Source of the DNA: an uncultured Verrucomicrobiota bacterium
Lineage (GTDB): Bacteria; Verrucomicrobiota; Kiritimatiellia; JAAZAB01
Length of the DNA: 64,000 bases
Reading direction: 5' to 3'
Assembly: GCA_964463985.1 (NCBI GenBank)
Contig: CAYXEK010000004.1
Location: 18,820 to 82,819 of the forward strand
The position numbers and the translations under genes are program-made. The notes below the pieces were generated by a model that saw only the letters and a list, made by a program, of their open reading frames with translations, was not told the origin of the DNA and ran no database searches. This document shows positions 32,796-44,785 of this stretch, piece by piece; position 1 is the stretch's first letter; every line of letters starts with the position of its first letter.

Positions 32796-33788
32796 TTGAA
32801 TATCCTCCGCCACCTTTCCCGCCCGCTCCTGGCCGCCGCCCTCCTGGCGGCATGCTGCGCGGACGTCCTCCCCGCCGCCGCGGCCCCGGCGCCGTTAATC
32901 ACGCTGAGCAAGTTTGCGCGCGCCCATGGTTTCACGGAGTTCAAGGTGCACGGCAAAGCCATTATCCTGGCCTGCCGGTTTCACTCGTTTACCCTGGAAG
33001 GCGACAGCCGGCGCGGAACCTACAATGGCGTGACCATCTGGCTTAATCACCCGGTAACCAGGCTTCGCGGAGCATGGGCCTTGTCCAGGACCGACGCGGA
33101 CAAGACCCTGCTGCCGTTGATGTTTCCCCATCGTGGTCTGACCGCGGCCGGGCGGCAGGTGGTCGTGCTGGATGCCGGCCACGGCGGCCGGGACAAAGGC
33201 GCCGTTTCACCCCGCCAGGTTGAAGAAAAGCGCGTCACGCTCTACCTGGCGCGCAAGGTGCGCGATCTCCTGCGCCAAAAAGGACTGCGGGCGCGCCTGA
33301 CCCGCGAAGGCGACCGTTACCTGTCGCTGGACGATCGCTGCCGGTTGGCGGAGCGCTGGGACGCCGATGTGTTCATCAGCATCCATATGAACGCCGCCGC
33401 GTCCCGCGACGCCGCGGGCATCGAAACGCATGTGCTCCCCCCCGCCGGCTGCCCGATCACCGCCCAGGGCAAGGTTGAAGGACGCGACCGGCTGGCGTAC
33501 GCCGGCAACCGGTACGACATCGCCAACATGTATCTGGGCTACGCCCTGCAGCGCCGGCTGTTGCAGTTTTCCGGCGCCGGCGACCGCGGCGTAAGGCGTT
33601 CGCGCTTTTACGTCATACGCAACGTTCCCTGCCCCGCGGCCCTGGTTGAAGGCGGGTTTATCTCCAATCCCGGCGAGGAGCACAAAATCATCCAAAAAGC
33701 CTACCGCGACAAACTGGCGCAAGGCATTGCCGACGGCATTCTGAACTACCTGGAAGCCGTGCGGAACGCACACCGGATGATGCAATGA
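32796..33788 (+). CDS. N-acetylmuramoyl-L-alanine amidase (Amidase_3)
   Basis: Signal peptide; VVLDAGHGGRDKGA, EK.VTL, TREGDRYLSL..R, FISIHMNA and ALVEGGFISNP.E. Confidence 0.92.
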   Translation: MNILRHLSRPLLAAALLAACCADVLPAAAAPAPLITLSKFARAHGFTEFKVHGKAIILACRFHSFTLEGDSRRGTYNGVTIWLNHPVTRLRGAWALSRTDADKTLLPLMFPHRGLTAAGRQVVVLDAGHGGRDKGAVSPRQVEEKRVTLYLARKVRDLLRQKGLRARLTREGDRYLSLDDRCRLAERWDADVFISIHMNAAASRDAAGIETHVLPPAGCPITAQGKVEGRDRLAYAGNRYDIANMYLGYALQRRLLQFSGAGDRGVRRSRFYVIRNVPCPAALVEGGFISNPGEEHKIIQKAYRDKLAQGIADGILNYLEAVRNAHRMMQ

Positions 33789-34612
33789 ACACCGCCTTTA
33801 CGCATCTGCCCGATATAATTTCCATGGGCGACAAGATTTTCGAGCCGCATTGGGCCGTCCACAACCATCAATCCGGACACTGCGAACTGCTGCTGGTGAT
33901 GGAAGGCTGGGTGCGGACGGTTTTTTACCGCCGCCGGAGTTTCACCACCGCGCCCGGCGGCTTCGTGCTGATTCCCGCCGGCATCCGCCACCGCGATGAA
34001 TTCGACCTGGCGCTGGGAATGAAAGTTTTCATGGTCGTCTTCCGCTGGCAGCATGACCGCGATTATTTCCAGCTTCTGCCGCTCGACGCCTGCCGCGCCG
34101 CCTCCCCCGCCGCCCGGCGCGCGGTCGCCGCGCTATGCGACCAGCTGCGCGACCGCCTGGCCGCCGGCACCGACGCCGACCGGCTGCTGGCGCGCGCCCA
34201 TCTGCTGACGATTCTGCTGACCGTCCTCCACTCGCTTTTGACCGGCGGCGCGGCTGCCCGCCGGCGGACGCCGCCCGGGGCCAACCATGCCCGCGCCTTG
34301 ATGCTGCAGGCCCGCGCCTATCTGAACGCGCATTACGCCGATGAAATTTCCCTGGAACAAATCGCCCGGCACCTGCGCATCAGCCCGTTTTACCTCTCCC
34401 ATCTTTTCAGCCGTGAAAATGATTTCTCGCTCCTGGAATACCTGACCAACCGGCGCATGCAGCAGGCCAAGCTGCTGCTGCAATCGGGAAAGCACTCGAT
34501 CAAGGAAGCCGCCCATGCCGTCGGTTACCATGACGGCAATTACTTTTCCAAGGTATTCCACCGCCACTTCGGGTTCGCCCCCAGGGATTTGCGCTATGCC
34601 GCCCGCCATTAA
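33785..34612 (+). CDS. AraC family regulator (cupin + double HTH)
   Basis: HNH...ELL cupin; ISLEQIA..L.ISPFYLSHLF...EYL...RM..AK.LL...SIKE.A.AVGY.D.NYFSKVF. Confidence 0.92.
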   Translation: MNTAFTHLPDIISMGDKIFEPHWAVHNHQSGHCELLLVMEGWVRTVFYRRRSFTTAPGGFVLIPAGIRHRDEFDLALGMKVFMVVFRWQHDRDYFQLLPLDACRAASPAARRAVAALCDQLRDRLAAGTDADRLLARAHLLTILLTVLHSLLTGGAAARRRTPPGANHARALMLQARAYLNAHYADEISLEQIARHLRISPFYLSHLFSRENDFSLLEYLTNRRMQQAKLLLQSGKHSIKEAAHAVGYHDGNYFSKVFHRHFGFAPRDLRYAARH

Positions 34613-34676
34613 GCATGGCCGTGCAGCCGGCCGTCGCAAATACGCTTCCGCCGGCGCGAGCGGCCCGGCTGGATGC

Positions 34677-34739
34677 GCAATATTTTACCCGTAATAGCAA
34701 ATTCCTACTCTTGCATTTGCCGGCCCGCCGGGGCAGAAT
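34677..34739 (+). promoter_or_regulatory. putative AraC-type activated promoter
   Basis: Direct repeats GCAATATTTTAC (34677) and GCAAATTCCTAC (34697), 20 bp apart, lie just upstream of TTGCAT-17bp-CAGAAT (34711-34739). Confidence 0.45.
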
Positions 34740-34817
34740 CACCCCCCAACAAGCGCAACCGGAATGCCGTTCGTGGCCGCCCGGGTTTCGCGCCAGCAAC
34801 CAAGGAAGGATGCAACC

Positions 34818-35639
34818 ATGCCGAACGCCAAGCTAGCTTATGCCGTCTGGCCCTGGGGACTGAAGGAAAAAGCGCAAATGATCGCCGCCTTGAAGGACAT
34901 GCAGTCCATCGGCTGCAAATATTTTGAGAGCGTGGCCACGGCAGTGGACCTGTTCCGCGACAGCCTCAGGGAATTCCAGGATATCGTCAACGATCACCAG
35001 GTGTTCCCGGTGAGTTTTTATTTCTGGAACCGGGGTGACAGGCAGAATGACGTGGCGACGGTGGAAAGATCGCTGGAATTCCTGGCCGCAAACAACATCC
35101 AGCGCATGAACGTGCAAGCGGCCGGCAAAAAAGGCGGCGGCGCCACGCCGGAAGAACTGCGCCTGACGCTGGAAACCCTGCAGGCCATCGGCAAGGTTGC
35201 CCGGCCTTACGGGATTCTGCCCTGCATTCACCCGCACGCCAACACCCTGGTCATGTTCGAAAACGAAATTGACTTCATCATGCAGAATACCGATCCGGCG
35301 GAAATCGGCTTCGGGCCGGATACTGCGCACATGACCGTCGGCAAATGCGACCCGGTGGCCGTCACCAAACGCTACGCCCGGCGCGTCGGCTTTACGCACA
35401 TCAAGGACGTGCGCAAGGAGCAGAAAGCCGAAGGCGATTTCGGCAGCGTCCGCGGTTTCGAAGTCTTCAGCTCGTTCCTGGAACTCGGCCAGGGCGAGGT
35501 GGATATTCCGGGATTTGTAAAAGTTCTGGAAGATGCCGGGTACGGCGGCTACCTGACTATCGAACTGGACAAGGCCCCGGTATCAAACCGGGAAAGCGCG
35601 GCGGCCAACATGGCCTACATGCGGAAACTGGGATATTAA
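34818..35639 (+). CDS. IolE/MocC-like sugar phosphate isomerase/epimerase TIM barrel
   Basis: HPHANT....NEID.IM..TDP......DTAH....GKCDP...Y..RV.FTHIKD, ELGQGEVD and Y.GYLTIELD. Confidence 0.8.
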   Translation: MPNAKLAYAVWPWGLKEKAQMIAALKDMQSIGCKYFESVATAVDLFRDSLREFQDIVNDHQVFPVSFYFWNRGDRQNDVATVERSLEFLAANNIQRMNVQAAGKKGGGATPEELRLTLETLQAIGKVARPYGILPCIHPHANTLVMFENEIDFIMQNTDPAEIGFGPDTAHMTVGKCDPVAVTKRYARRVGFTHIKDVRKEQKAEGDFGSVRGFEVFSSFLELGQGEVDIPGFVKVLEDAGYGGYLTIELDKAPVSNRESAAANMAYMRKLGY

Positions 35640-35666
35640 GGCGGGGAGCGTCACCAAGCGAATAAC

Positions 35667-35778
35667 GTGTCGGGTGTCGCGTGTCGGGTGTCGGGTGTCG
35701 GGTGTCGCGTGTCGGGTGTCGCGTGTCGCGTGTCGCGTGTCGGGTGTCGCGTGTCGCGTGTCGGGTGTCGCGTGTCGG
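35667..35778. repeat. heptamer tandem repeat (GTGTCG[G/C]) x16
   Basis: 112 bp: 8 GTGTCGG and 8 GTGTCGC units. One inverted copy, CCGACACCCG, at 35818-35827. Confidence 0.97.
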
Positions 35779-35893
35779 AAGGGGATGAAAGTGTTGTGTC
35801 TTACATTCCGCGCGCCGCCGACACCCGTCACCTGGGACGTATAATTTTTTATAGCAGTATCGCAAACACTTAACAATCACAGGAGCGTAAATA

Positions 35894-37186
35894 ATGCAAT
35901 CCGACACACTGGCAATCAATGGCGGCAAACCGGCAATTCCCGCAGGACTGATCAAGGGTTGGCCGCCGATTGACGCAATCGACCGCAAACTCGTGATGGC
36001 TTCCCTGGAGGGCGGTGTGCACACTTTCGGCCCCAATGCCAAGGCATTCCAGGAGGAATTCGCCGCCTGGAACGGCAATCAATACGCCATATACACCAAC
36101 AGCGGCACCGGCGCCCTGCACATGGGGCTGGTGGGCTGCGGCTTGAGCGCCGGCGATCACGTGCTGGTGCCGGCCTATTCCTGGAGTTCCAGCGCCACCT
36201 GCATCCTGCACAACAATTGCATTCCGGTCTTTGTGGACATTGACTTTGACACCATCAACATTGACGTCAAAAAAATCGAGGCGGCCATCACCAGGAAGAC
36301 CCGGGCAATCGTCGTCGTGCACCTGCACGGGTTGACGGTCAACATGGACGCGGTCATGAAAATCGCCCGCAAGCACAATTTGTTCGTCATTGAAGACGCC
36401 TGCCAGGCCCATGGGGCGCTTTTCAAGGGGCGCAAGGCCGGCACGCTGGGCCATTGCGCCGCCTTCAGCTTCAATCAGAACAAATGCCTGTGCGCCGGGG
36501 AAGGCGGCATGTTCGTCACTGACGACATGGAAATCTGGAACAAGGCCAAAATGCTCTGGTCGTTCGGCGAAACGCGCACCCCTATGGAATCGCGCGATTA
36601 CCATGCCTACGCCCTCGGCTGGATGTACCGCGGCAACGACCTGACCGCCGCCTTCGGCCGCGCCCAACTCACCAAGATGGACCGCTACCTCAAGGTGCAG
36701 CGGGAAAACGCCGCCCTGCTGCTGGATTTGCTGAAGGGCACGCCCGCGCTGATCCTGCCGACCGAACCCCGAGGCCACACGCATAACTGGTACAATTTTA
36801 CCAGCCGGATTGACATGCGCGCGGCGCGCTGGACGGGCGACAAAAAAATGTTCCGCAACGCCGTGATGGCGGCGCTCAAGGCCGAAGGCGCGCTGGTGGG
36901 CGTTTGGCAGAATTTCATCCTGCCGGAAATGACGGTCTTCCAGGCGCAGAACGCCTACGGCCACGGGTGTCCCTGGCGCTGTCCGCTGACCGAGCCGGTC
37001 AAATACGATCCCAAAGCCTATCCCGTGGCGCAAAGGCACACCGAGACGCATTTCGGCATGACCTACCCGTTGCGCGCTCCGAACGGCAAAAGCACGGTGC
37101 GCGCCACCGCCCGCGCCTTCCAGAAAGTGTTTAACAATCTGAATCAACTGGACGTGGAAAAACTCTGCGCGCCGAAGAAGAAATAA
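35894..37186 (+). CDS. DegT/DnrJ/EryC1/StrS PLP aminotransferase
   Basis: NSGTGAL, PVFVDID, VVHLHG, IEDACQAHGA, FSFNQNK (PLP Lys), GEGG and GWMYR; TATAAT at 35840 and AGGAG RBS. Confidence 0.93.
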   Translation: MQSDTLAINGGKPAIPAGLIKGWPPIDAIDRKLVMASLEGGVHTFGPNAKAFQEEFAAWNGNQYAIYTNSGTGALHMGLVGCGLSAGDHVLVPAYSWSSSATCILHNNCIPVFVDIDFDTINIDVKKIEAAITRKTRAIVVVHLHGLTVNMDAVMKIARKHNLFVIEDACQAHGALFKGRKAGTLGHCAAFSFNQNKCLCAGEGGMFVTDDMEIWNKAKMLWSFGETRTPMESRDYHAYALGWMYRGNDLTAAFGRAQLTKMDRYLKVQRENAALLLDLLKGTPALILPTEPRGHTHNWYNFTSRIDMRAARWTGDKKMFRNAVMAALKAEGALVGVWQNFILPEMTVFQAQNAYGHGCPWRCPLTEPVKYDPKAYPVAQRHTETHFGMTYPLRAPNGKSTVRATARAFQKVFNNLNQLDVEKLCAPKKK

Positions 37187-37187
37187 A

Positions 37188-38444
37188 ATGCAAGCCGGAT
37201 TTGCGGAAATTGACATCACCCCCCCGCCGGGCACCCGCAAAATCGGGTGGCTGAAGGAAGTCATCGGCGAACGCGCCCTGGATCCATTGTACGCGCGCGC
37301 AGCGGTCTTTGACAACGGCGCCGCCAGGTTGGGATTCATCCAACTGGATCTGCTCAGCATCCGCGCGGCCCAGGTGGACCAGATTCGTCAACGCATCGCC
37401 GGCGAATGCGGATTCCCCGGCGCCAATGTCATGGTTTCGGCCACGCACAATCACGCCGGTCCGGCCGTGGCCAACCTTGGCGACGTGCCGCGGGATGAAG
37501 CTTACACCGCGGAATTGGTTAACCGCTGCGTGGCTGTGTTCGGGTCGGCGCTGCGCAACCTGGCGGATGCCGGAATTGGGTTCGGCCGCGGCATTGAAAC
37601 CGGCCTGTCATTCAACCGCCGGATGATCATGCGCGACGGCACGGTCAAAACCCAGGTCGCCATCTCCCCCGACGCCTTGTGCGTTGAGGGGCCGGCCGAC
37701 CCGGAAGTCGGCCTGCTGGCGGCCCGCGGCAAGGACGGCCGCCTGCTTGGCTGCATGGTGAATTTTGCCTGCCACCCTGTGCACCATGGCGGCGAAAATG
37801 TTTTTTCGGCCGGTTACCCCGGAGTGCTGGCCAAAGTCATGAAACAGCGCGGCTGCCCGGTGACCCTGTTCATGAACGGCGCCTGCGGCAATTTGATTAA
37901 CTGGGACTTCCTGAACCCGGGAGTCAATCATTCCATGCAGGCGCTGGGATTCCGGCTGGCCGACCGCGCGACCATCATGCTCGCCGAATTGAACTGGCGC
38001 GGCCGGGTGGCAATGCGCGCGGCATCTGCAACCCTGCAACTGCCTTTCCGCAATCCGACCGAGGCGGAAATCAAGGGGACGATCCGCGGCGCCCAACGGT
38101 TTATTGATCCTGAAATTTACGAACGCGGCATGCCGGCGCTTTGCGAGAAAATCCGCGTTCGCAAGACCAATCCGGCCGAAGTCCAGGTGTTGTTCATGGA
38201 CGAATACGCCTGGGTTGGCATTCCCGCCGAGTATTTCGTCGAACACGGCCTGCGCATCAAGGAAAAATCCCATCCAACCCGCGCCTGGATCGTGGGGCAT
38301 GCCAACGGCATGCTGGGATATGTGCCGACGCGCCAGGCGTTCGAACGCGGCGGATACGAAACCACTTTCGCCGGGTCAAGCCAGATGGCGCCGGAGACCG
38401 GCGACCTGCTGGCGGAGGCCGCGATCGGCCTGATCAAAGGATAA
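37188..38444 (+). CDS. neutral/alkaline ceramidase-fold metallo-hydrolase, paralog 1
   Basis: DPLYARA, SATHNHAGP, FNRR, NFACHP, GACGN, IPAEYF and GGYET. Confidence 0.75.
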   Translation: MQAGFAEIDITPPPGTRKIGWLKEVIGERALDPLYARAAVFDNGAARLGFIQLDLLSIRAAQVDQIRQRIAGECGFPGANVMVSATHNHAGPAVANLGDVPRDEAYTAELVNRCVAVFGSALRNLADAGIGFGRGIETGLSFNRRMIMRDGTVKTQVAISPDALCVEGPADPEVGLLAARGKDGRLLGCMVNFACHPVHHGGENVFSAGYPGVLAKVMKQRGCPVTLFMNGACGNLINWDFLNPGVNHSMQALGFRLADRATIMLAELNWRGRVAMRAASATLQLPFRNPTEAEIKGTIRGAQRFIDPEIYERGMPALCEKIRVRKTNPAEVQVLFMDEYAWVGIPAEYFVEHGLRIKEKSHPTRAWIVGHANGMLGYVPTRQAFERGGYETTFAGSSQMAPETGDLLAEAAIGLIKG

Positions 38445-38449
38445 ACCAA

Positions 38450-39967
38450 ATGGAAAAATCGAACTCATCTCTCAAAATCGGCTGGGGTTCGGCCGATATC
38501 ACGCCGGACAGGACGGTGATGGTCGCCGGCCAGTTCCACGCCCGGGTGTCCGAGGGCGTTATGGATCCGATCACCGCCACCGCGCTGGCGCTTGAGTCCG
38601 ACGGGGGCGGCCAGCGCGCCATTATGGTCAGTTGCGACCTGGTCGCCATTCCCGACAACCTTTTGGAAGCCGTCCGCGCGCAAATCAAGCAGTGTTTGCC
38701 GGAACTGGATCCTTTGACCGTCTTTCTGAACGCCACGCATACCCATGCCGCGCCCGAGGTCCGGGCGGACGGCATGTCCAAATTCGGCGGCGGCAATGTG
38801 CCCACGCGCGTGGGTGTGGAACTGGATGTGATGGATCCGGCGGAATATGTTGATTTTGCGGCAATGCGCATTGCGGAAGCCGCAGCGTCGGCCTGGCGGT
38901 CCCGCGCGCCCGGCGGAATCGGCTTCGGCCTGGGGCAGGCGGTGGTCGGCCGCAACCGCCGCATTTCTTATTATACCGGCGAAACCCGAATGTACGGCAA
39001 GACCAACGATCGGGAATTCAGCCATGTCGAAGGGTACGAAGATCATGCGGTGAACCTGCTGTGCGCCTATGATGCGGATAAAAAGCTTTCCGGCATGGTG
39101 GTCAACCTGGCCTGTCCGTCGCAGGTCAGCGAAAATTCCTACCAGCTCAGCGCGGATTACTGGCATGACGTCCGGCAGGAACTGCGCCGGAGGTTCGGCG
39201 GCAACCTGTTCATCCTGCCGCAAAACAGCGCGTCCGGCGACCAATCGCCGCACGTGCTGATCAACCAGGCCGCCGAAGCGCGCATGCTTCATTTGAAGGG
39301 CTTGACGGATCAACTGCCGGAAAAACCGGACGGCAACCTGGGCGCGCCCGGCGCCTTGCGCCGGGAAATCGCTTTGCGGATCGCCGACACCATCGGCGTA
39401 ATCGTGCCGGCGGTGAACCGGGATGTTGACATGGCCCCGGCATTCCGCCATCTGGCGCAAATCGTGGAGCTTCCGCGCCGCAACCTTACCCGGGCAGACG
39501 TGGACGAGGCGCTGGCGGAAGCGCAAAAAATGCGGGCGCGCTACGAGGAACTGCGCGCCGACCTGGCGGCGCATCCGGAAAAGAAGCAGGCGCCCCGCTG
39601 GTATGTCAGCATCACGTCCGCCTACCGACGCGTGAAGTGGTTCGAAGGTGTGGCCGAACGCTACGCCATGCAGCAGCAACAGCCCCGGCTGCCGATTGAG
39701 GCGCATGTGTTGCGCCTGGGCGGAGTCGCGCTGGCGACCAATCCTTTCGAATATTACCTGGATTTCGGCATGCAGATCAAGGCGCGCAGCGCGGCCACGC
39801 AGACGTTTCTGGTGCAGCATGTCGGCGCGGGGACCTACCTGCCGTCCGACCGCGCCGTGGCCGGCAAGAGCTACGGCGCCGTTCCCGCCAGCACCCCCGT
39901 GGGCCCGGAAGGCGGAAGGGAACTGGCGGACTGGACGATCAACACCATCAATAAACTGTGGGCATAA
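38450..39967 (+). CDS. ceramidase-fold hydrolase, paralog 2
   Basis: DPITATALA, NATHTHAAP, GRNRR, NLACPSQ, SADYW, SGDQSP, NPFEYY and YLPS. True start is ATG 38450. Confidence 0.72.
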   Translation: MEKSNSSLKIGWGSADITPDRTVMVAGQFHARVSEGVMDPITATALALESDGGGQRAIMVSCDLVAIPDNLLEAVRAQIKQCLPELDPLTVFLNATHTHAAPEVRADGMSKFGGGNVPTRVGVELDVMDPAEYVDFAAMRIAEAAASAWRSRAPGGIGFGLGQAVVGRNRRISYYTGETRMYGKTNDREFSHVEGYEDHAVNLLCAYDADKKLSGMVVNLACPSQVSENSYQLSADYWHDVRQELRRRFGGNLFILPQNSASGDQSPHVLINQAAEARMLHLKGLTDQLPEKPDGNLGAPGALRREIALRIADTIGVIVPAVNRDVDMAPAFRHLAQIVELPRRNLTRADVDEALAEAQKMRARYEELRADLAAHPEKKQAPRWYVSITSAYRRVKWFEGVAERYAMQQQQPRLPIEAHVLRLGGVALATNPFEYYLDFGMQIKARSAATQTFLVQHVGAGTYLPSDRAVAGKSYGAVPASTPVGPEGGRELADWTINTINKLWA

Positions 39968-40032
39968 CTACCGGCCGCGGATGCTCCCGCGCGGCCCTGC
40001 CCGGCCGTTTGGAGACGGCCACGAATCAAGCC

Positions 40033-40860
40033 ATGACAACAGAATCTTCCGCCAAAGCAAGCTTGCCCCTGGCCATTCAGCTTTACAGCGTGCGTTCCCT
40101 GATGCAGGAAAAATTCCGGGAAACCCTGCTGGCGCTGGCGGACATCGGCTTTGACAGCATCGAATGGTCGGGGGCTTACGGCGGCATGACCCCGTCGCAA
40201 TTGGCGGAGTTCCTACGTCAAGCGGGATTGCGTGTTTCCGGCATGTTTGCCAACGCGCCCGGACTGCTTGACGCCGGCAGCCCCGTTTACGCTTTCGCCC
40301 GCGTGTTAAAACCTGAATACCTGGCGGTCAGCCTGAATTTTGCGCCGGATAATTTCAAGGAAGTGCTGGGAAAACTGCGATCCATAAAGAAGACTGCGGC
40401 CGGACAGGGATTTGACCTGACTTACCACAACCATGCCAATGAGTTTCAGAAACTCCCGGACGGGCGGATGATCCTGGAGGCCCTCCTGGAGGAAACCGCC
40501 GGCGACGGCCAGCAATTTCTGTTCGACACATTTTTCGCATATTACGCCGGGTGCGATCCGTGCGCGCATCTCAGAAAATATACCGGACGCATCCCGCAGA
40601 TTCATTTCAACGACATGGACCCGGCCGGGCATTCCAGCCCGCCGCCGGCCGGCAACAGCCAGGAATTTTCCACCGAACTTGGCGCCGGCATCATGGATTT
40701 GCCGGCAATCTACCGGACCGCCGCCGGCGCCGGCGTCCGCTGGTTGGTCCTCGAACAACACAGCCAACGGGACAATCCGCTGGACAGCGCCCGCCGGAAT
40801 TTTGCGTATTGCCGGAAGATGATGCTCAATGCGGAAGACGAGATGCTGGCCGGGAACTGA
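40033..40860 (+). CDS. sugar phosphate isomerase/epimerase TIM barrel
   Basis: AIQLYSVR, YHNHANEF, FDTFF, IHFNDM, ELGAG..DL and VLEQ. Confidence 0.85.
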   Translation: MTTESSAKASLPLAIQLYSVRSLMQEKFRETLLALADIGFDSIEWSGAYGGMTPSQLAEFLRQAGLRVSGMFANAPGLLDAGSPVYAFARVLKPEYLAVSLNFAPDNFKEVLGKLRSIKKTAAGQGFDLTYHNHANEFQKLPDGRMILEALLEETAGDGQQFLFDTFFAYYAGCDPCAHLRKYTGRIPQIHFNDMDPAGHSSPPPAGNSQEFSTELGAGIMDLPAIYRTAAGAGVRWLVLEQHSQRDNPLDSARRNFAYCRKMMLNAEDEMLAGN

Positions 40861-40897
40861 TCCCTGCGCCGCATCAAATAATTAAGGAAACCACACC

Positions 40898-41734
40898 ATG
40901 AAACTATCCGTCATGTCCTACACCCTCGGCCGCACCGGCTGGTTTAAAGACAACAAACCCGAAGACCTGAAAAGAATCTGCAGCCTGGCGGCCGAGATTG
41001 GCACGGACGGCATTGACTGGGTGACTACCCACGGCATGGACCCCAAGGAAATCCGGCAAGCCATGAATGACCATGGCTTGAAGACCGTCTGCTATACCTT
41101 CGGCGCCGCCGGCTTGAACCGCGATGCGTTCGCCGAACGCTGCGCCGGCGTGGATACCGCGCGCGTCACGATAGAAACCGCCGTCACGCTGGGCGCCGAC
41201 AAGGTCATGCTGGTTACACCCGGCAACCCCAAAATCCCCCGCGACATCAGCCGCCGCAATTACATCCGCGGTCTGCAGGAATGCGCCGGCTTCGCCCGCC
41301 AGGCCGGCGTGACCATGACCATTGAGAATTTCCCGGGCAGCGACAGTCCCTTCGTCATCTCCAGCGATATCCTCGAAGCCGTCCGGGAAGTGCCAGGCTT
41401 GAAACTTACCTACGACAACGGCAACACCGCGCTGGGCGGGGAAGACCCGGCCGTATCGTTTACCCGCTGCGCCGCCCATGCCGCGCATGCGCATTTCAAG
41501 GATTGGGACCGGATGCCCCCGGAACAGGGCCGCGAAGCACTGGACGGCCGCCGCTACATGCCGGCGCTGATCGGGGAAGGCATGATTGATCACCAGAGTT
41601 GCCTGGCCGCCATGCAAGCCGCCGGCTACCAGGGCTACATCAACATCGAGTATGAAAACAACAAGTACCCGGCCGATGAAGCCACCCGCCGCGCCGCGAA
41701 ATACCTGCAGAACCTCATGCGGCCAACGGGCTGA
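40898..41734 (+). CDS. sugar phosphate isomerase/epimerase TIM barrel
   Basis: MTIENF, YDNGN, HAHFKD, GEGMIDH and Y.GYINIEYE. Confidence 0.85.
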   Translation: MKLSVMSYTLGRTGWFKDNKPEDLKRICSLAAEIGTDGIDWVTTHGMDPKEIRQAMNDHGLKTVCYTFGAAGLNRDAFAERCAGVDTARVTIETAVTLGADKVMLVTPGNPKIPRDISRRNYIRGLQECAGFARQAGVTMTIENFPGSDSPFVISSDILEAVREVPGLKLTYDNGNTALGGEDPAVSFTRCAAHAAHAHFKDWDRMPPEQGREALDGRRYMPALIGEGMIDHQSCLAAMQAAGYQGYINIEYENNKYPADEATRRAAKYLQNLMRPTG

Positions 41735-41845
41735 CCAGGCGGACGGCCGCACCGCCGGCGGGGAATGCAAAGCTGGCAATGACCGGCGGAGTATGCTAAT
41801 TTCCGGATTGCAGACGAGTTGGTTGCAAATATTACAGGAGCCACC

Positions 41846-43321
41846 ATGAGCGCGCAAATTCCTTCCATCCTGAAAATCGGTTGGGCGGCGGCCGACATCA
41901 CTCCCAGCCGGCCCGTGAACCTTCAGGGCCAGTTTCACATGCGGATTTCTCAAGGCGTCAAGGATCCCCTCACGGCCACCGCGCTGGCATTGGAAGGCGG
42001 CGGCGGCGCCGTGGTTTTCCTTTCGGTGGATGGAGGATTTTTCCCGGCCCCCGTGGTTGACGGCATCCGCGCCGCCGTCAAAGGGCAGATTCCAACGCTT
42101 GACCCCATGTCCATCATCATCAATGCCACCCATACGCATACGGCGCCGATGCTGGAGGACGGCATGTATCCGCCCGTGCCGGCCGGCGTCATGACCGGCA
42201 AGGCTTACGCCAATTTCCTGGTCGAGCGCGTGGCGCAAGCGATCGTCAAAGCCTGGCGCGACCGCGCGCCGGGCAAGGCAGCCTGGGCGCTCGGGCATGC
42301 GGTTGTCGGACGGAATCGCCGGGCGGTTTATTTCGACGACCTGTCCCAGCGTCCCGGATACAAAGATCACCCCGGCCATTGCACCACCCGCAACGCCGCC
42401 ATGTATGGCCGGACGGACGATCCGATGTTCAGCCATATCGAGGGCTACGAAGATCATTCCGTGGACTTGCTTTACGCCTGGGATGAACGGGACCAACTCA
42501 CCGGCATTGTCGTCAACCTCGCCTGCCCGTCCCAGGAAACCGAAGGACTATCCGTCATTTCCGCCGATTTCTGGCATGACGTCCGCGTCGCCCTCCGCCG
42601 GCAGCTGGGGGAAAAATTATTCTTCCTCCCGCAAAGCTCCGCCGCCGGCGACCAGTCGCCGCATCCATTGTGGTACAAAACCGCGGAAAAGCGCATGCTG
42701 GAACTGCGCGGCATTGACAGCCGCGCCGAAATCGCCCGGCGCATCAGTCAAACCGTGGCGGAAGTCCTGCCGCTGGCCCGCCAGGACCGGCATGGCAGCG
42801 TGATCCTGCAACATTCCAGCCGGCTGGCGCAACTGCCGCGGCGGATGATTACCGATGCCGAAGCCGCCATGTTGCGCGCCGGCATCGCCGAACTGGAAAA
42901 ACGGCCGGCCTCCGCCGATCCGGATCCCGACAAGCGGCTGCGGGCCGATTCGGTGCGGGTCACCGAGATGGCCCGTTGCAAACTGGCGCTGCGCCGATAC
43001 GAAACGCAGAAAAAAAACCCTGCTTTCTCCGCCCGGATTAATACCGTCCGACTGGGCGATATCGCCTTTGCCTGCATACCCTTCGAATTGTTCCTGGATT
43101 ATGGCATCAGGATCAAGGCGCGCAGCCCGGCCATCCAGACCTTCATCGTGCAGTTGGCCGATGCCTGCCCGGGATGGGACGGCAATTACCTGCCGACCGC
43201 CCGCGCCGAACAGGGACAAAGCTACAGCGCCAACTGCTACTGTAACAGCGTGGGATCCCAGGGCGGCCAGGCGTTGGTGGAAACGATCCTGCAGGACTTG
43301 CACCAGGCCTGGGCCAAGTAA
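41846..43321 (+). CDS. ceramidase-fold hydrolase, paralog 3
   Basis: DPLTATALA, NATHTHTAP, GRNRR, NLACPSQ, SADFW, AGDQSP, IPFELF and YLPT; AGGAG RBS. Confidence 0.72.
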   Translation: MSAQIPSILKIGWAAADITPSRPVNLQGQFHMRISQGVKDPLTATALALEGGGGAVVFLSVDGGFFPAPVVDGIRAAVKGQIPTLDPMSIIINATHTHTAPMLEDGMYPPVPAGVMTGKAYANFLVERVAQAIVKAWRDRAPGKAAWALGHAVVGRNRRAVYFDDLSQRPGYKDHPGHCTTRNAAMYGRTDDPMFSHIEGYEDHSVDLLYAWDERDQLTGIVVNLACPSQETEGLSVISADFWHDVRVALRRQLGEKLFFLPQSSAAGDQSPHPLWYKTAEKRMLELRGIDSRAEIARRISQTVAEVLPLARQDRHGSVILQHSSRLAQLPRRMITDAEAAMLRAGIAELEKRPASADPDPDKRLRADSVRVTEMARCKLALRRYETQKKNPAFSARINTVRLGDIAFACIPFELFLDYGIRIKARSPAIQTFIVQLADACPGWDGNYLPTARAEQGQSYSANCYCNSVGSQGGQALVETILQDLHQAWAK

Positions 43322-43363
43322 AATGTGCTTGACTCACGCCACAGCATGCTTAAATATTCAAGC

Positions 43364-44785
43364 ATGCAAATGCAAAATTTTTGCGAGCATTATTTCCGCC
43401 TGTCCGAGAACCGCACCTCCATCCGCACGGAACTGACGGCGGGGCTCACCACTTTCCTGACGATGGCGTACATTATTTTCGTCCAGCCATCGGTGTTGTC
43501 GGGCGCCATGTCCGGGCAAAGCACGGGGATGGATTTCGGCGCCCTGACCACCGCCACCTGCATGACGGCCGCGCTGGCCACGGCCATCATGGGCCTTTAT
43601 GCCCGTTACCCCATCGCCCTGGCGCCGGGCATGGGCGAAAATTTCTTTTTCGTATTCACCGCGATTCCCGCGGCGGCCGCCGCCGGCAGCGCCATCCCCT
43701 GGCAGACGGCGCTGGGAGCGGTGTTCATTTCCGGAATTGTTTTCATGGCAATTTCCCTGGCCGGCGCCCGGGAATTGCTGTTGAATGCCGTGAGTCCCAG
43801 CCTGAAAAACGGCATTGCGGTGGGCATCGGATTTTTTATCGCCTTCATTGGACTGCGAAATGCCGGCTTGATTATCCCGGATGCCGGCACGATGGTCAAA
43901 CTCAACCCGAATTTTGCCTCCCTGGATTTGCTGGTGTTTTTTGCCGGTTTCATCACCACCAGCGTCCTTTTCGCGCGCGGGGTTAAAGGCGCCATCCTCT
44001 GGGGCATCGCCGCCGCCGCCGCGCTGGCGCTGGGATTGCACTGCCTGGCGCCGCACCTGCCCGAAAGCCTGGTCCAGATGCCGGCCTTCCGGGACTCGCT
44101 GCTGCTGCAGCGTTTTCAACCCGCGCGCCGGCTGTTTTCGATTCCGCCGTCCATCGCGCCGATTTTCCTGAAACTTGACCTGCGCGGCGCCCTTTCATCC
44201 GCCATGCTGCCAATGATCGTCATTTTCCTGTTCATGGATGTTTTCGACACCATGGGCACACTCATCGGCGTCAGCGGGCGGGCGGGCTTGATCCGGGACA
44301 ACCGGCTCCCGCGCGCCGACCGGGCCTTCATGGCGGATGCGATCGGCACCGTAGCCGGCGCCACTTGCGGCATGAGCACGGTCACCAGTTTTGTGGAAAG
44401 CGCCGCGGGCGTGGAGCATGGCGGACGCACCGGCTTGACCAGCCTGGCGGCGGCCGGCTTGTTCCTGCTGGCGCCGTTTTTTGCGCCGGTTATCGCCATG
44501 ATCGGCAGTTTCCCTCCAATCACCGCGCCGGCGCTGGTGATCGTAGGCTTCATGATGATGCAGAATATCCGTCAGATCGCCTGGGAAGATTACAGCGAAT
44601 CCGTGCCCGCCGGCCTGATCATGATCGGGGTTCCGCTCTGCTATTCCATCGCCGACGGTCTGGCGCTGGGATTTATCGCCTACCCCGCCATCAAGCTGCT
44701 GAGCGGACGGCGGCGGGAATCTTCCTGGGTGCTCTACGCCGTCGGCCTGGTTTTGCTGGTTTACTTCATCACGATCCGCCGTTGA
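43364..44785 (+). CDS. AzgA/PbuG-like purine permease (NCS2 COG2252 clade)
   Basis: TE..AGLTTFLTMAYI, APGMG.N.FF, FMDVFDTMGT, SFVESAAGV..GGRTGLT and SIADG..LGFI. Confidence 0.92.
   Translation: MQMQNFCEHYFRLSENRTSIRTELTAGLTTFLTMAYIIFVQPSVLSGAMSGQSTGMDFGALTTATCMTAALATAIMGLYARYPIALAPGMGENFFFVFTAIPAAAAAGSAIPWQTALGAVFISGIVFMAISLAGARELLLNAVSPSLKNGIAVGIGFFIAFIGLRNAGLIIPDAGTMVKLNPNFASLDLLVFFAGFITTSVLFARGVKGAILWGIAAAAALALGLHCLAPHLPESLVQMPAFRDSLLLQRFQPARRLFSIPPSIAPIFLKLDLRGALSSAMLPMIVIFLFMDVFDTMGTLIGVSGRAGLIRDNRLPRADRAFMADAIGTVAGATCGMSTVTSFVESAAGVEHGGRTGLTSLAAAGLFLLAPFFAPVIAMIGSFPPITAPALVIVGFMMMQNIRQIAWEDYSESVPAGLIMIGVPLCYSIADGLALGFIAYPAIKLLSGRRRESSWVLYAVGLVLLVYFITIRR

Follow-up and report, generated by a model that had tools for sequence, protein, structure and literature searches.

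A 64,000-nucleotide stretch of the genome of an uncultured Verrucomicrobiota bacterium of the Kiritimatiellia (contig CAYXEK010000004.1, positions 18,820 to 82,819; hereafter the window) carries a block of eight co-oriented plus-strand genes. In order, they encode an AraC-family regulator, a xylose-isomerase-like triosephosphate isomerase (TIM) barrel protein (TIM1), a DegT-family aminotransferase (DegT), two ceramidase-like proteins (CerL1 and CerL2), two further TIM barrel proteins (TIM2 and TIM3), and a third ceramidase-like protein (CerL3). The block is a real and conserved feature made of uncharacterized clades of known superfamilies, and it is an expanded, regulated version of a smaller unit consisting of DegT and CerL1, often accompanied by a TIM barrel. 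In the reading we favor, which we hold with about even confidence, the operon would be responsible for the substrate-inducible cytoplasmic breakdown of an N-acylated amino sugar, an amino-sugar glycoside, or an aminopolyol. Genes were called from an open reading frame (ORF) listing combined with Pfam and NCBIfam family scans of the window proteins. These confirmed the content (three CerL, three TIM, AraC, DegT), coordinates and shared orientation given by an earlier description made from the sequence alone (the sequence-only reading), which had tentatively assigned the block to the catabolism of an aminocyclitol or amino sugar.

The distribution of the genes was examined with a scan covering one genome per species, which identified 80 loci with CerL1 orthologues (49–89% identity); three independent exact-protein look-ups gave the same picture. 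The Kiritimatiellia contribute the closest, at 89%; further carriers belong to Planctomycetota (Brocadiia and Phycisphaerae among them), Armatimonadota, Lentisphaerota/Victivallales, Hydrogenedentota, Chloroflexota, Limnochordia, Spirochaetota, and several candidate phyla. The DegT-CerL1 core pair is conserved in more than 10 phyla. The complete eight-gene order is preserved in a Kiritimatiellia metagenome-assembled genome (MAG; locus L005), with protein identities of 86–94%. At 34 of the 69 loci with enough upstream sequence, DegT is the immediate upstream neighbor of CerL1 and is co-oriented with it, the two being separated by -9 to 177 nt; in 12 more, DegT is found elsewhere in the CerL1 locus. 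The DegT orthologues are 55–71% identical across phyla. Because the block is syntenic in L005 and the DegT-CerL1 pair recurs across phyla, the gene arrangement is not due to chance. A TIM barrel gene, usually TIM3-like, directly follows CerL1 at 15 of 77 loci, and CerL1-TIM pairs lacking an adjacent DegT gene were also observed (L011, L033, L063, L065). No other neighbor is conserved, which defines the unit as DegT-CerL1, frequently joined by a TIM barrel. Loci from the Planctomycetota-Verrucomicrobiota-Chlamydiota (PVC) group gain CerL2/3-type paralogs, TIM2-like barrels, and AraC (L058, L060, L066, L076, L084), and homologues of the AraC regulator (32–44% identity) adjoin the module in L018, L021, L060, L066, L074, L083, and L084.

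The neighborhoods of the module are catabolic in flavor. Diverse partners, each present in 2–8 of the 80 loci, include Gfo/Idh/MocA proteins, URO-D-like proteins, sulfatases, FAD oxidoreductases, and glycoside hydrolases, and genes for GH36, GH51-like, and GDSL esterase proteins are also interleaved. Across the same loci there is no conserved transporter, kinase, aldolase, or regulator that names the substrate, and no nucleoside diphosphate (NDP)-sugar or glycosyltransferase families recur among the neighbors. Nucleotide-sugar and glycosyltransferase genes are likewise missing from the window over roughly 7 kb before the block and 6 kb after it, as the sequence-only reading had it.

Several features of the related loci deserve mention in their own right. 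Sulfatases with an SGSH_C domain (N-sulphoglucosamine sulphohydrolase C-terminal) are found among CerL and TIM genes in L084 (11321–12772 and 16630–18102), L037, L038, and L044, a hint that sulfated amino sugars are among the substrates; the one translation inspected, from L084, has no obvious signal peptide. Locus L076 (1–12000, Lentisphaerae bacterium GWF2_44_16) has no DegT gene; genes for a GDSL esterase, a small membrane protein, a URO-D-like protein, and two TIM barrels are interleaved there with at least seven ceramidase-like paralogs. Orthologues of CerL1 at 52–56% identity are also present in MAGs labeled Thermococci or Hadarchaeota (L027, L057, L068), with DegT adjacent in L057 and L068, reflecting either mis-binning or transfer into archaea. 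Finally, two related families of proteins of about 355–370 residues, with a faint match to URO-D (PF01208) or no Pfam match, recur within or beside the module in several phyla (L012 1386–2498 and 3776–4855; L021 8904–9989; L037 5023–6168; L060 10673–11740; L078 4922–5977).

DegT belongs to the DegT/DnrJ/EryC1/StrS family, scoring 292 bits against PF01041 (cut-off 19.8). Its Schiff-base lysine, K197 (36482–36484), lies in the sequence FSFNQNK, aligns with the FSFFGNK lysine of GDP-perosamine synthase, and is invariant in 18 orthologues. Because this lysine is present, the protein is an aminotransferase rather than a (His-type) dehydratase. The sequence-only reading had compared the enzyme with StsC, BtrR, and MosB, which interconvert inososes and inosamines. 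To place it, the solved structures in the PDB, BtrR among them, were ranked by their scores against a profile of the 18 orthologues. The best match was Fic25 (8gyh–8gyj) at 329 bits, aligned over the full length including the C-terminal extension, and Ser5 (8y96) also aligned over its full length (243 bits). Only partial alignments were obtained with GDP-perosamine synthase (249 bits), 7b0d, named "glutamine-scyllo-inositol transaminase" (239 bits), the 2-deoxy-scyllo-inosose aminotransferases (207–227 bits; 5w71 227, BtrR 2c7t 223), QdtB (218 bits), ArnB (about 197 bits), and KdnA (194 bits). The ranking thus did not group DegT with the solved inosose enzymes, which scored 207–239 bits. All NCBIfam equivalogs for NDP-sugar aminotransferases (PseC, LegC, WecE, ArnB, DesI) were missed widely, the best being PseC at 202 against 423.5. 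The ranking and these misses speak against an NDP-sugar substrate and lend no specific support to an inosose, and by this measure DegT falls in a distinct clade without a characterized member. The substrate of Fic25 is an acyclic alpha-hydroxy ketone. Both Fic25 and Ser5 act on substrates bound to an amino-group carrier protein and not on nucleotide sugars (PMC11726168).

The three TIM barrels differ in their relatives and in their predicted active sites. For TIM1 the top NCBIfam match is iolE (TIGR04379, 79.4 bits), a model that gives 49.1 bits with TIM2 and 44.6 bits with TIM3; none reaches the cut-off of 290. Its best PDB match is IolE itself (3cny, E 6e-14), a beta-eliminating enzyme that works next to a ketone. 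The label "IolE/MocC-like" in the sequence-only reading holds only as distant homology. In a three-way alignment of the TIM proteins, the TIM1 sequence IHPHAN is aligned with YHNHAN of TIM2, and TIM1 has an H-x-H/D/H/E pattern. We propose that TIM1 is a keto-sugar dehydratase or eliminase. The best PDB matches of TIM2 are 8tcd (E 6e-16), 8tcs and 8tct (to 9e-13), and 8bvk, which is AtOGE (E 3e-13). AtOGE is a Mn-dependent beta-eliminase that cleaves 3-keto-O-glucosides using the ligands His132, Asp163, His189, and Glu233 and the base His134 (PMC10628242). When TIM2 was aligned to 8bvk, all five residues were found to be kept, as H133/H135 (YHNHAN), D166 (FDTF), H192 (IHFND), and E242 (LEQH), and TIM2 is thus a candidate Mn-dependent beta-eliminase or hydratase acting on a keto-sugar. 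TIM3 has an E/D/H/E site (IENF, YDNGN, HFKD, IEYE) and no AtOGE-type H-x-H. An E/D/H/E arrangement is the usual site in sugar isomerases and epimerases of the xylose-isomerase-like fold. The best PDB match of TIM3 is Art22 (8z1i, E 2e-34), and we propose a role as keto-sugar isomerase or epimerase. A glycoside 3-dehydrogenase or Gfo reductase partner was not found in the window, and Gfo/Idh/MocA genes are present in only a few related loci. Because enzymes of the AtOGE/IolE type require a carbonyl beside the abstracted proton and the operon lacks a dehydrogenase, the aminotransferase is the sole candidate for making that carbonyl.

These results bear directly on aminocyclitol catabolism, in which an N-acylated inosamine, rhizopine-like compound, or aminoglycoside fragment would be deacylated, converted to an inosose by DegT, and dehydrated by the IolE-like TIM1 and TIM2. 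IolE is indeed the best characterized relative of TIM1, the H-x-H site suits the chemistry of IolE, a beta-elimination adjacent to a ketone, and inosose aminotransferases belong to the same Pfam family as DegT (207–239 bits against the profile). However, DegT is no nearer to the inosose enzymes than to perosamine synthase and is much nearer to Fic25, TIM1 remains far below the IolE cut-off (79 against 290 bits), and the closest relatives of TIM2 cleave glycosides, TIM2 being more like 3-keto-glycoside beta-eliminases than like inosose enzymes. Neither the window nor the 80 related loci contain inositol dehydrogenase, iolB, iolC, iolD, other iol/moc genes such as the mocB type, or a matching transporter, and the neighbors that do occur include sulfatases and glycoside hydrolases. 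We therefore regard an aminocyclitol, rhizopine, or aminoglycoside substrate as quite unlikely. The accompanying suggestion that the ceramidase-fold proteins might open rings found no support.

The ceramidase-like proteins are remote members of their superfamily. All three score below the PF04734 gathering threshold of 32.1 bits (CerL1 29.4, CerL2 20.7, CerL3 21.7), and the ceramidase model NF041649 gave 15.9 against a cut-off of 1200. Nevertheless, an AlphaFold2 (AF2) model of CerL1 (predicted local distance difference test, pLDDT, 84; predicted TM-score, pTM, 0.88) matched only neutral ceramidases in a Foldseek search (2zws, 2zxc, 4wgk; E ~1e-22; query-normalized TM-score 0.69–0.75). Normalized to the target, the TM-score drops to 0.48, as CerL1 has no counterpart of the C-terminal domain found in true ceramidases. 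Residues H87/H89 (THNHAGP), H196 (C-H-P), E348 (P-A-E-Y-F), Y378, and Y390 align with the active-site motifs of the Pseudomonas aeruginosa ceramidase PaCD (phmmer), and the zinc and catalytic residues, together with R144/R145, are invariant in an alignment of 22 homologues. The neutral-ceramidase fold and the complete catalytic set make an amide-hydrolase function plausible. Signal peptides and transmembrane segments were found in none of the seven enzymes of the block, and CerL1 is very probably an active, cytoplasmic zinc amidohydrolase, which we propose to be an N-deacylase. The other invariant residues of the CerL1 family are often Arg, Asp, Asn, and Glu, and this polar character suggests a polar substrate better than a lipid.

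CerL2 and CerL3 are placed in this fold by homology to CerL1; they are 42% identical to each other, and either is 25% identical to CerL1 over the full length (E 1e-18). Both keep the H-x-H, Glu, and Tyr positions (the CerL2 motifs are THTHAAP, ACPSQ, and PFEYY), and A-C-P-S-Q-E replaces C-H-P-V-H of CerL1, so that the equivalent of H196 (His204 of PaCD), a zinc ligand, is substituted. Since the Cys, Gln, and Glu of ACPSQETE and a downstream S-P-H are invariant in an alignment of 20 family members, the metal site has been remodeled and has not decayed. Both families are very large: among scored candidates there are at least 1869 homologues of CerL1 and at least 4855 of CerL3 (the latter at E ≤ 1e-10), and a CerL1 profile retrieves 21,090 clusters at 50% identity (E ≤ 0.001), or 11,871 at E ≤ 1e-10. 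CerL3 family members are about 50% identical across Armatimonadota, Kiritimatiellia, and Victivallales. No characterized member of the short ceramidase-like form was found in the PDB or the literature searched. As separate observations, the short domain is fused to an AAT domain (PF03417, acyl-CoA:6-APA acyltransferase or Ntn-hydrolase type) in an 852-residue Armatimonadota protein (L001, 18927–21290), and it lies near one end of giant proteins of 1256–2098 residues (P0268, P0272, P0307, and P0375, listed with the fusions).

Could the CerL proteins be true ceramidases after all? The operon would then degrade a lipid amide, with DegT transaminating the 2-amino-1,3-diol head of a sphingoid base and the TIM barrels isomerizing the ketol. 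The ceramidase fold with its full catalytic set would suit such a pathway, the product of Fic25 carries a 2-amino-1,3-diol motif, and a Pseudomonas ceramidase is under the control of an AraC-type regulator. Yet all three CerL proteins fall under the Pfam and NCBIfam ceramidase thresholds, they are short and cytoplasmic and lack the C-terminal domain, their invariant Arg, Asp, Asn, and Glu residues suggest a polar ligand, genes for handling fatty acids or lipids are absent nearby, and CerL paralogs occur in sugar operons of the nag type (below). We consider a lipid-amide substrate very improbable.

A translated search of plasmid records detected distant CerL paralogs (25–29% identity) on 41 replicons. 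The CerL genes of Nitratireductor sp. OM-1 and Microvirga ossetica share a conserved gene order: a LacI regulator, a nagB-like gene, a SIS-domain sugar isomerase, a nagA-like gene, CerL, and a carbohydrate ATP-binding cassette (ABC) transporter. The best NCBIfam match of the nagB-like gene is glucosamine-6-phosphate deaminase (109 bits), the nagA-like amidohydrolase matches nagA (189 bits), and the Nitratireductor operon adjoins genes for a NanE-type epimerase, a ROK protein, and a GntR regulator. An amidohydrolase gene is also listed next to the CerL matches of Devosia and Martelella, and a haloarchaeal megaplasmid carries Gfo/Idh/MocA, CerL, and TIM barrel genes together. The nag-like operons thus place a ceramidase-fold protein beside amine-removing enzymes, a role that by analogy DegT would take in the PVC/Planctomycetota module. 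The absence of inosose affinity, the likeness of TIM2 to AtOGE, and the nag-like CerL operons together make an amino sugar or aminopolyol the better guess for the substrate. For future work, the alphaproteobacterial operon offers a tractable system in which to study the function of a ceramidase-fold enzyme. It also includes a 413-residue protein without a Pfam match (L089, 5392–13809, on plasmid pOM-1; L086 in Microvirga).

The gene content, the folds, the active-site residues, and the linkage of DegT, CerL1, and a TIM barrel across phyla are shown by the data above; we infer which way DegT runs, what class of substrate is degraded, how the steps follow one another, and what each paralog does. 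In the presence of substrate, the AraC regulator would switch the operon on. CerL1, as a zinc amidase, would strip the N-acyl group, with CerL2 and CerL3 doing likewise for other acyl groups or positions. DegT, running in the deaminating direction, would donate the amine released by CerL1 to a 2-oxo acid, leaving a keto-sugar, from which TIM1 and TIM2 would remove a beta-substituent (a glycosidic oxygen, hydroxyl, or sulfate), or whose product they would hydrate. TIM3 would then isomerize or epimerize the keto-sugar to a common sugar. Because the operon has no kinase or phosphotransferase system, the substrate is probably unphosphorylated. The core of this scheme, an amidase that unmasks an amine for removal by DegT, was already part of the sequence-only reading, and it is consistent with the catalytic residues of CerL1, the adjacency of the two genes at 34 of 69 loci, and the catabolic neighbors; what found no specific support is the aminocyclitol, aminoglycoside fragment, or rhizopine-like compound on which it was supposed to act.

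A number of observations weigh against this proposal. Genes for a sugar transporter, a kinase, a glycoside hydrolase, and a keto-sugar reductase are all missing from the window, and the sole adjacent permease is of the NCS2 family. Sequence does not tell in which direction a transaminase runs, and the nearest solved relatives of DegT, Fic25 and Ser5, are biosynthetic enzymes that act on carrier-protein-bound amino-acid derivatives. Lipids are the substrates of canonical ceramidases, and CerL2 and CerL3, one zinc ligand short, may not be amidases. On Agrobacterium pAt, the genes around one distant CerL paralog encode an esterase, a multicopper oxidase, and a tannase and do not form a sugar context; the CerL superfamily is therefore not uniform. 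The PDB and the literature searched provided no characterized enzyme of these clades and no named substrate. In most genomes, moreover, the DegT-CerL1 pair stands alone, sometimes amid housekeeping genes (L003), so that recycling of an endogenous compound fits these genomes as well as nutrient catabolism does.

Such an endogenous role could take two forms: DegT might aminate an N-acyl-protected keto intermediate that CerL1 then deprotects, or the pair might salvage an amino sugar of the cell's own envelope. The logic of the former would be that of ArgD/ArgE, LysJ/LysK, and the Fic25 pathway, and Fic25 and Ser5 do work in amide-protected (carrier-protein) biosynthesis with a final amidase step. 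The frequent occurrence of the pair without a regulator or transporter and the very high identity of its orthologues (55–71% across phyla) also point this way. On the other hand, the pair has no conserved neighbor encoding a carrier protein, an ATP-grasp ligase, a kinase/reductase, or an acyltransferase, cupin-sensor AraC regulators and catabolic neighbors recur, and three amidase paralogs with eliminase-type TIM barrels suit breakdown better than synthesis. We judge endogenous recycling or biosynthesis to be unlikely. A further possibility is that CerL1 merely serves the transaminase: with glutamine as amino donor for DegT, it would hydrolyze 2-oxoglutaramate and so pull amination of a substrate unrelated to the amidase. 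Coupling of this kind would account for a tight two-gene module without another conserved partner, some DegT enzymes are glutamine-dependent according to their PDB names, and the invariant arginines of CerL1 could bind a dicarboxylate. However, three CerL paralogs are unnecessary for one transaminase, known omega-amidases belong to the nitrilase superfamily, and loci without DegT can hold CerL-TIM pairs or as many as six CerL paralogs in an array (L021, L076, L063, L065). An omega-amidase function is in our view extremely improbable, and breakdown of an N-acylated amino sugar or aminopolyol remains the reading we favor.

The organization of the block is consistent with an operon (Table 1). Several start codons were set later than that of the longest ORF, based on orthologue starts and Shine-Dalgarno context (that of TIM1 follows L005). 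The intergenic gaps from DegT to CerL3 are only 1 to about 110 nt, with CerL1 starting 1 nt past the DegT stop codon, and these genes therefore very probably form a single transcript. The 254-nt spacer between TIM1 and DegT holds a heptamer repeat and, just downstream of the array, a promoter-like site (CCGACA-16-TATAAT, 35818–35845). The same spacer in L005 has a different repeat (25 nt, 3.3 copies; L005 1394–1473), and metagenome contigs from run X3 end at the heptamer array. The spacer seems to be a hotspot of unrelated tandem repeats. Terminator-like matches were no more numerous than in shuffled sequence, and the scan did not mark where the operon ends. The AraC regulator combines a cupin-type ligand-binding N-terminal domain with two C-terminal helix-turn-helix (HTH) motifs, all three models scoring above cut-off, and it is a probable substrate-responsive activator of the operon.

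Table 1. Features of the gene block and the adjacent permease gene (positions in the window).
Feature	Coordinates	Strand	Supporting evidence
AraC-family regulator	33785-34612	+	HTH_18 72.9 bits, HTH_AraC 57 bits, AraC_binding 28.3 bits
TIM1, xylose-isomerase-like TIM barrel	34818-35639	+	AP_endonuc_2 83.5 bits
Heptamer tandem repeat CGTGTCG, 16 copies	35666-35777	.	Tandem Repeats Finder (TRF) score 175, 90% matches
DegT pyridoxal phosphate (PLP) aminotransferase, long form with C-terminal extension	35894-37186	+	PF01041 292 bits
CerL1, 418 aa, ceramidase-like	37188-38444	+	PF04734 29.4 bits; AF2 model and Foldseek
CerL2, 505 aa, ceramidase-like paralog	38450-39967	+	Homology to CerL1/CerL3
TIM2, xylose-isomerase-like TIM barrel	40033-40860	+	AP_endonuc_2
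TIM3, xylose-isomerase-like TIM barrel	40898-41734	+	AP_endonuc_2 114 bits
CerL3, 491 aa, ceramidase-like paralog, ACPSQ type	41846-43321	+	Homology to CerL1/CerL2
NCS2 (Xan_ur_permease) transporter, operon membership uncertain	43364-44785	+	PF00860 131 bits

The upstream flank encodes an agmatinase, an arginine decarboxylase, an EamA protein, a tetratricopeptide repeat (TPR) protein, and an amidase_3 protein. The last of these, an exported N-acetylmuramoyl-L-alanine amidase (32796–33788), has a stop codon that overlaps the AraC start (ATGA), which suggests that the cell-wall amidase and the regulator are translationally coupled. It was considered as a member of the module and rejected, being missing from all related loci. 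Downstream lie the NCS2 permease gene, a hypothetical gene, a hybrid histidine kinase gene, and a gene for IMP dehydrogenase (IMPDH), about 3 kb away. The permease gene begins 40 nt past CerL3 and has its own promoter-like site (43329–43358). Its candidacy as the operon's transporter, which would have implied an amino-nucleoside substrate, was dismissed because of this site, the nearby IMPDH gene, and synteny limited to L005. It is probably a purine-salvage gene.

The sequence was found nearly complete in metagenomes from anaerobic digesters, bioreactors, and biogas sources. Exact 151-nt fragments of DegT, CerL1, and CerL2 were present in two sludge metatranscriptome runs and one run labeled RNA-Seq. 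Run X3 is labeled RNA-Seq, but its coverage of the region is even, as for DNA; the exact fragments in X15–X17 are scattered. These reads are a hint that the operon is transcribed, a weak one because DNA carry-over is possible.

Amino sugars account for much of the glycan material of microbes and hosts. To our knowledge, the routes by which they are broken down are largely unknown beyond N-acetylglucosamine (GlcNAc), N-acetylgalactosamine (GalNAc), N-acetylmannosamine (ManNAc), and sialic acid, and this holds above all for nonulosonic acids and for deoxy-amino sugars that are rare and N-acylated. No description of the DegT-CerL1(-TIM) module was found in the literature searched. The module is present in the phyla that chiefly degrade glycans in sediments, soils, guts, and digesters. 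Identification of its substrate would correct the annotation of thousands of genes now called "hypothetical" or "neutral ceramidase", would probably define a new carbohydrate-esterase family, and would reveal a catabolic role for the DegT family, known mostly from biosynthesis. It might also extend beta-eliminative glycoside cleavage to amino sugars. Should the substrate turn out to be an ordinary amino sugar, the annotation would be useful yet incremental. A more far-reaching version of our proposal, which is speculative and on the unlikely side, is a "transaminative" form of glycan breakdown, in which CerL proteins are N-deacylases, DegT converts amino to keto groups, and AtOGE-like Mn-dependent eliminases cut the glycosidic bond or another beta-substituent without the need for a glycoside hydrolase or dehydrogenase. 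If this were true, the short ceramidase-fold proteins would constitute a new and very large family of carbohydrate N-deacylases (carbohydrate esterases) with about 12,000 clusters at 50% identity, and the pathway would be the amino-sugar counterpart of the oxidative 3-keto-glycoside pathway, common to Planctomycetota, Armatimonadota, PVC phyla, Chloroflexota, and others.

Comparison with known systems helps to define what is distinctive about the block. With the neutral ceramidases (PaCD, 2zws/2zxc; human ASAH2, 4wgk), CerL1 shares the catalytic-domain fold, the zinc ligands, and the catalytic residues. Its identity to them is only 16–20%, however, with scores under the family thresholds, and CerL2 and CerL3 lack the His204-equivalent ligand. 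The CerL proteins have 418–505 residues against 630–672 in PaCD and ASAH2, with no C-terminal domain and no secretion signal, and their conserved surface is polar and their genomic context one of carbohydrates, not lipids. Among aminotransferases, Fic25 and Ser5 are the nearest solved relatives of DegT (about 40% identity), and the likeness shows that this DegT subclade can dispense with a nucleotide handle. Unlike those biosynthetic enzymes, DegT has a catabolic context, and a carrier protein and its loading enzymes are found in none of the related loci. The comparison with StsC/BtrR/MosB and IolE/MocC is a weaker one: DegT shares a Pfam family with the former, and TIM1 is remotely homologous to IolE, but DegT shows no specific affinity for the inosose enzymes (207–239 bits against 329 for Fic25) and the other inositol and rhizopine genes are absent.

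Closest in proposed logic is NagA/NagB catabolism, which likewise proceeds by de-N-acylation, removal of the amino group, and delivery of a keto or aldo sugar to central metabolism. The enzyme families all differ, with a ceramidase-fold zinc amidase in place of NagA and a PLP transaminase in place of the isomerase-deaminase, and the eliminase-type TIM barrels are an addition of the present operon. It is in these barrels that the block resembles the oxidative 3-keto-glycoside pathway, composed of a glycoside 3-dehydrogenase, AtOGE, the hydratase AtHYD, and a Gfo reductase (PMC10628242; 8bvk, 8tcd/8tcs/8tct). TIM2, and by its motif TIM1, is homologous to the eliminase of that pathway, and both systems have paired xylose-isomerase-like TIM barrels. 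Unlike the oxidative pathway, the operon has no dehydrogenase or reductase and includes amidases, and the keto group would come from transamination of an amine.

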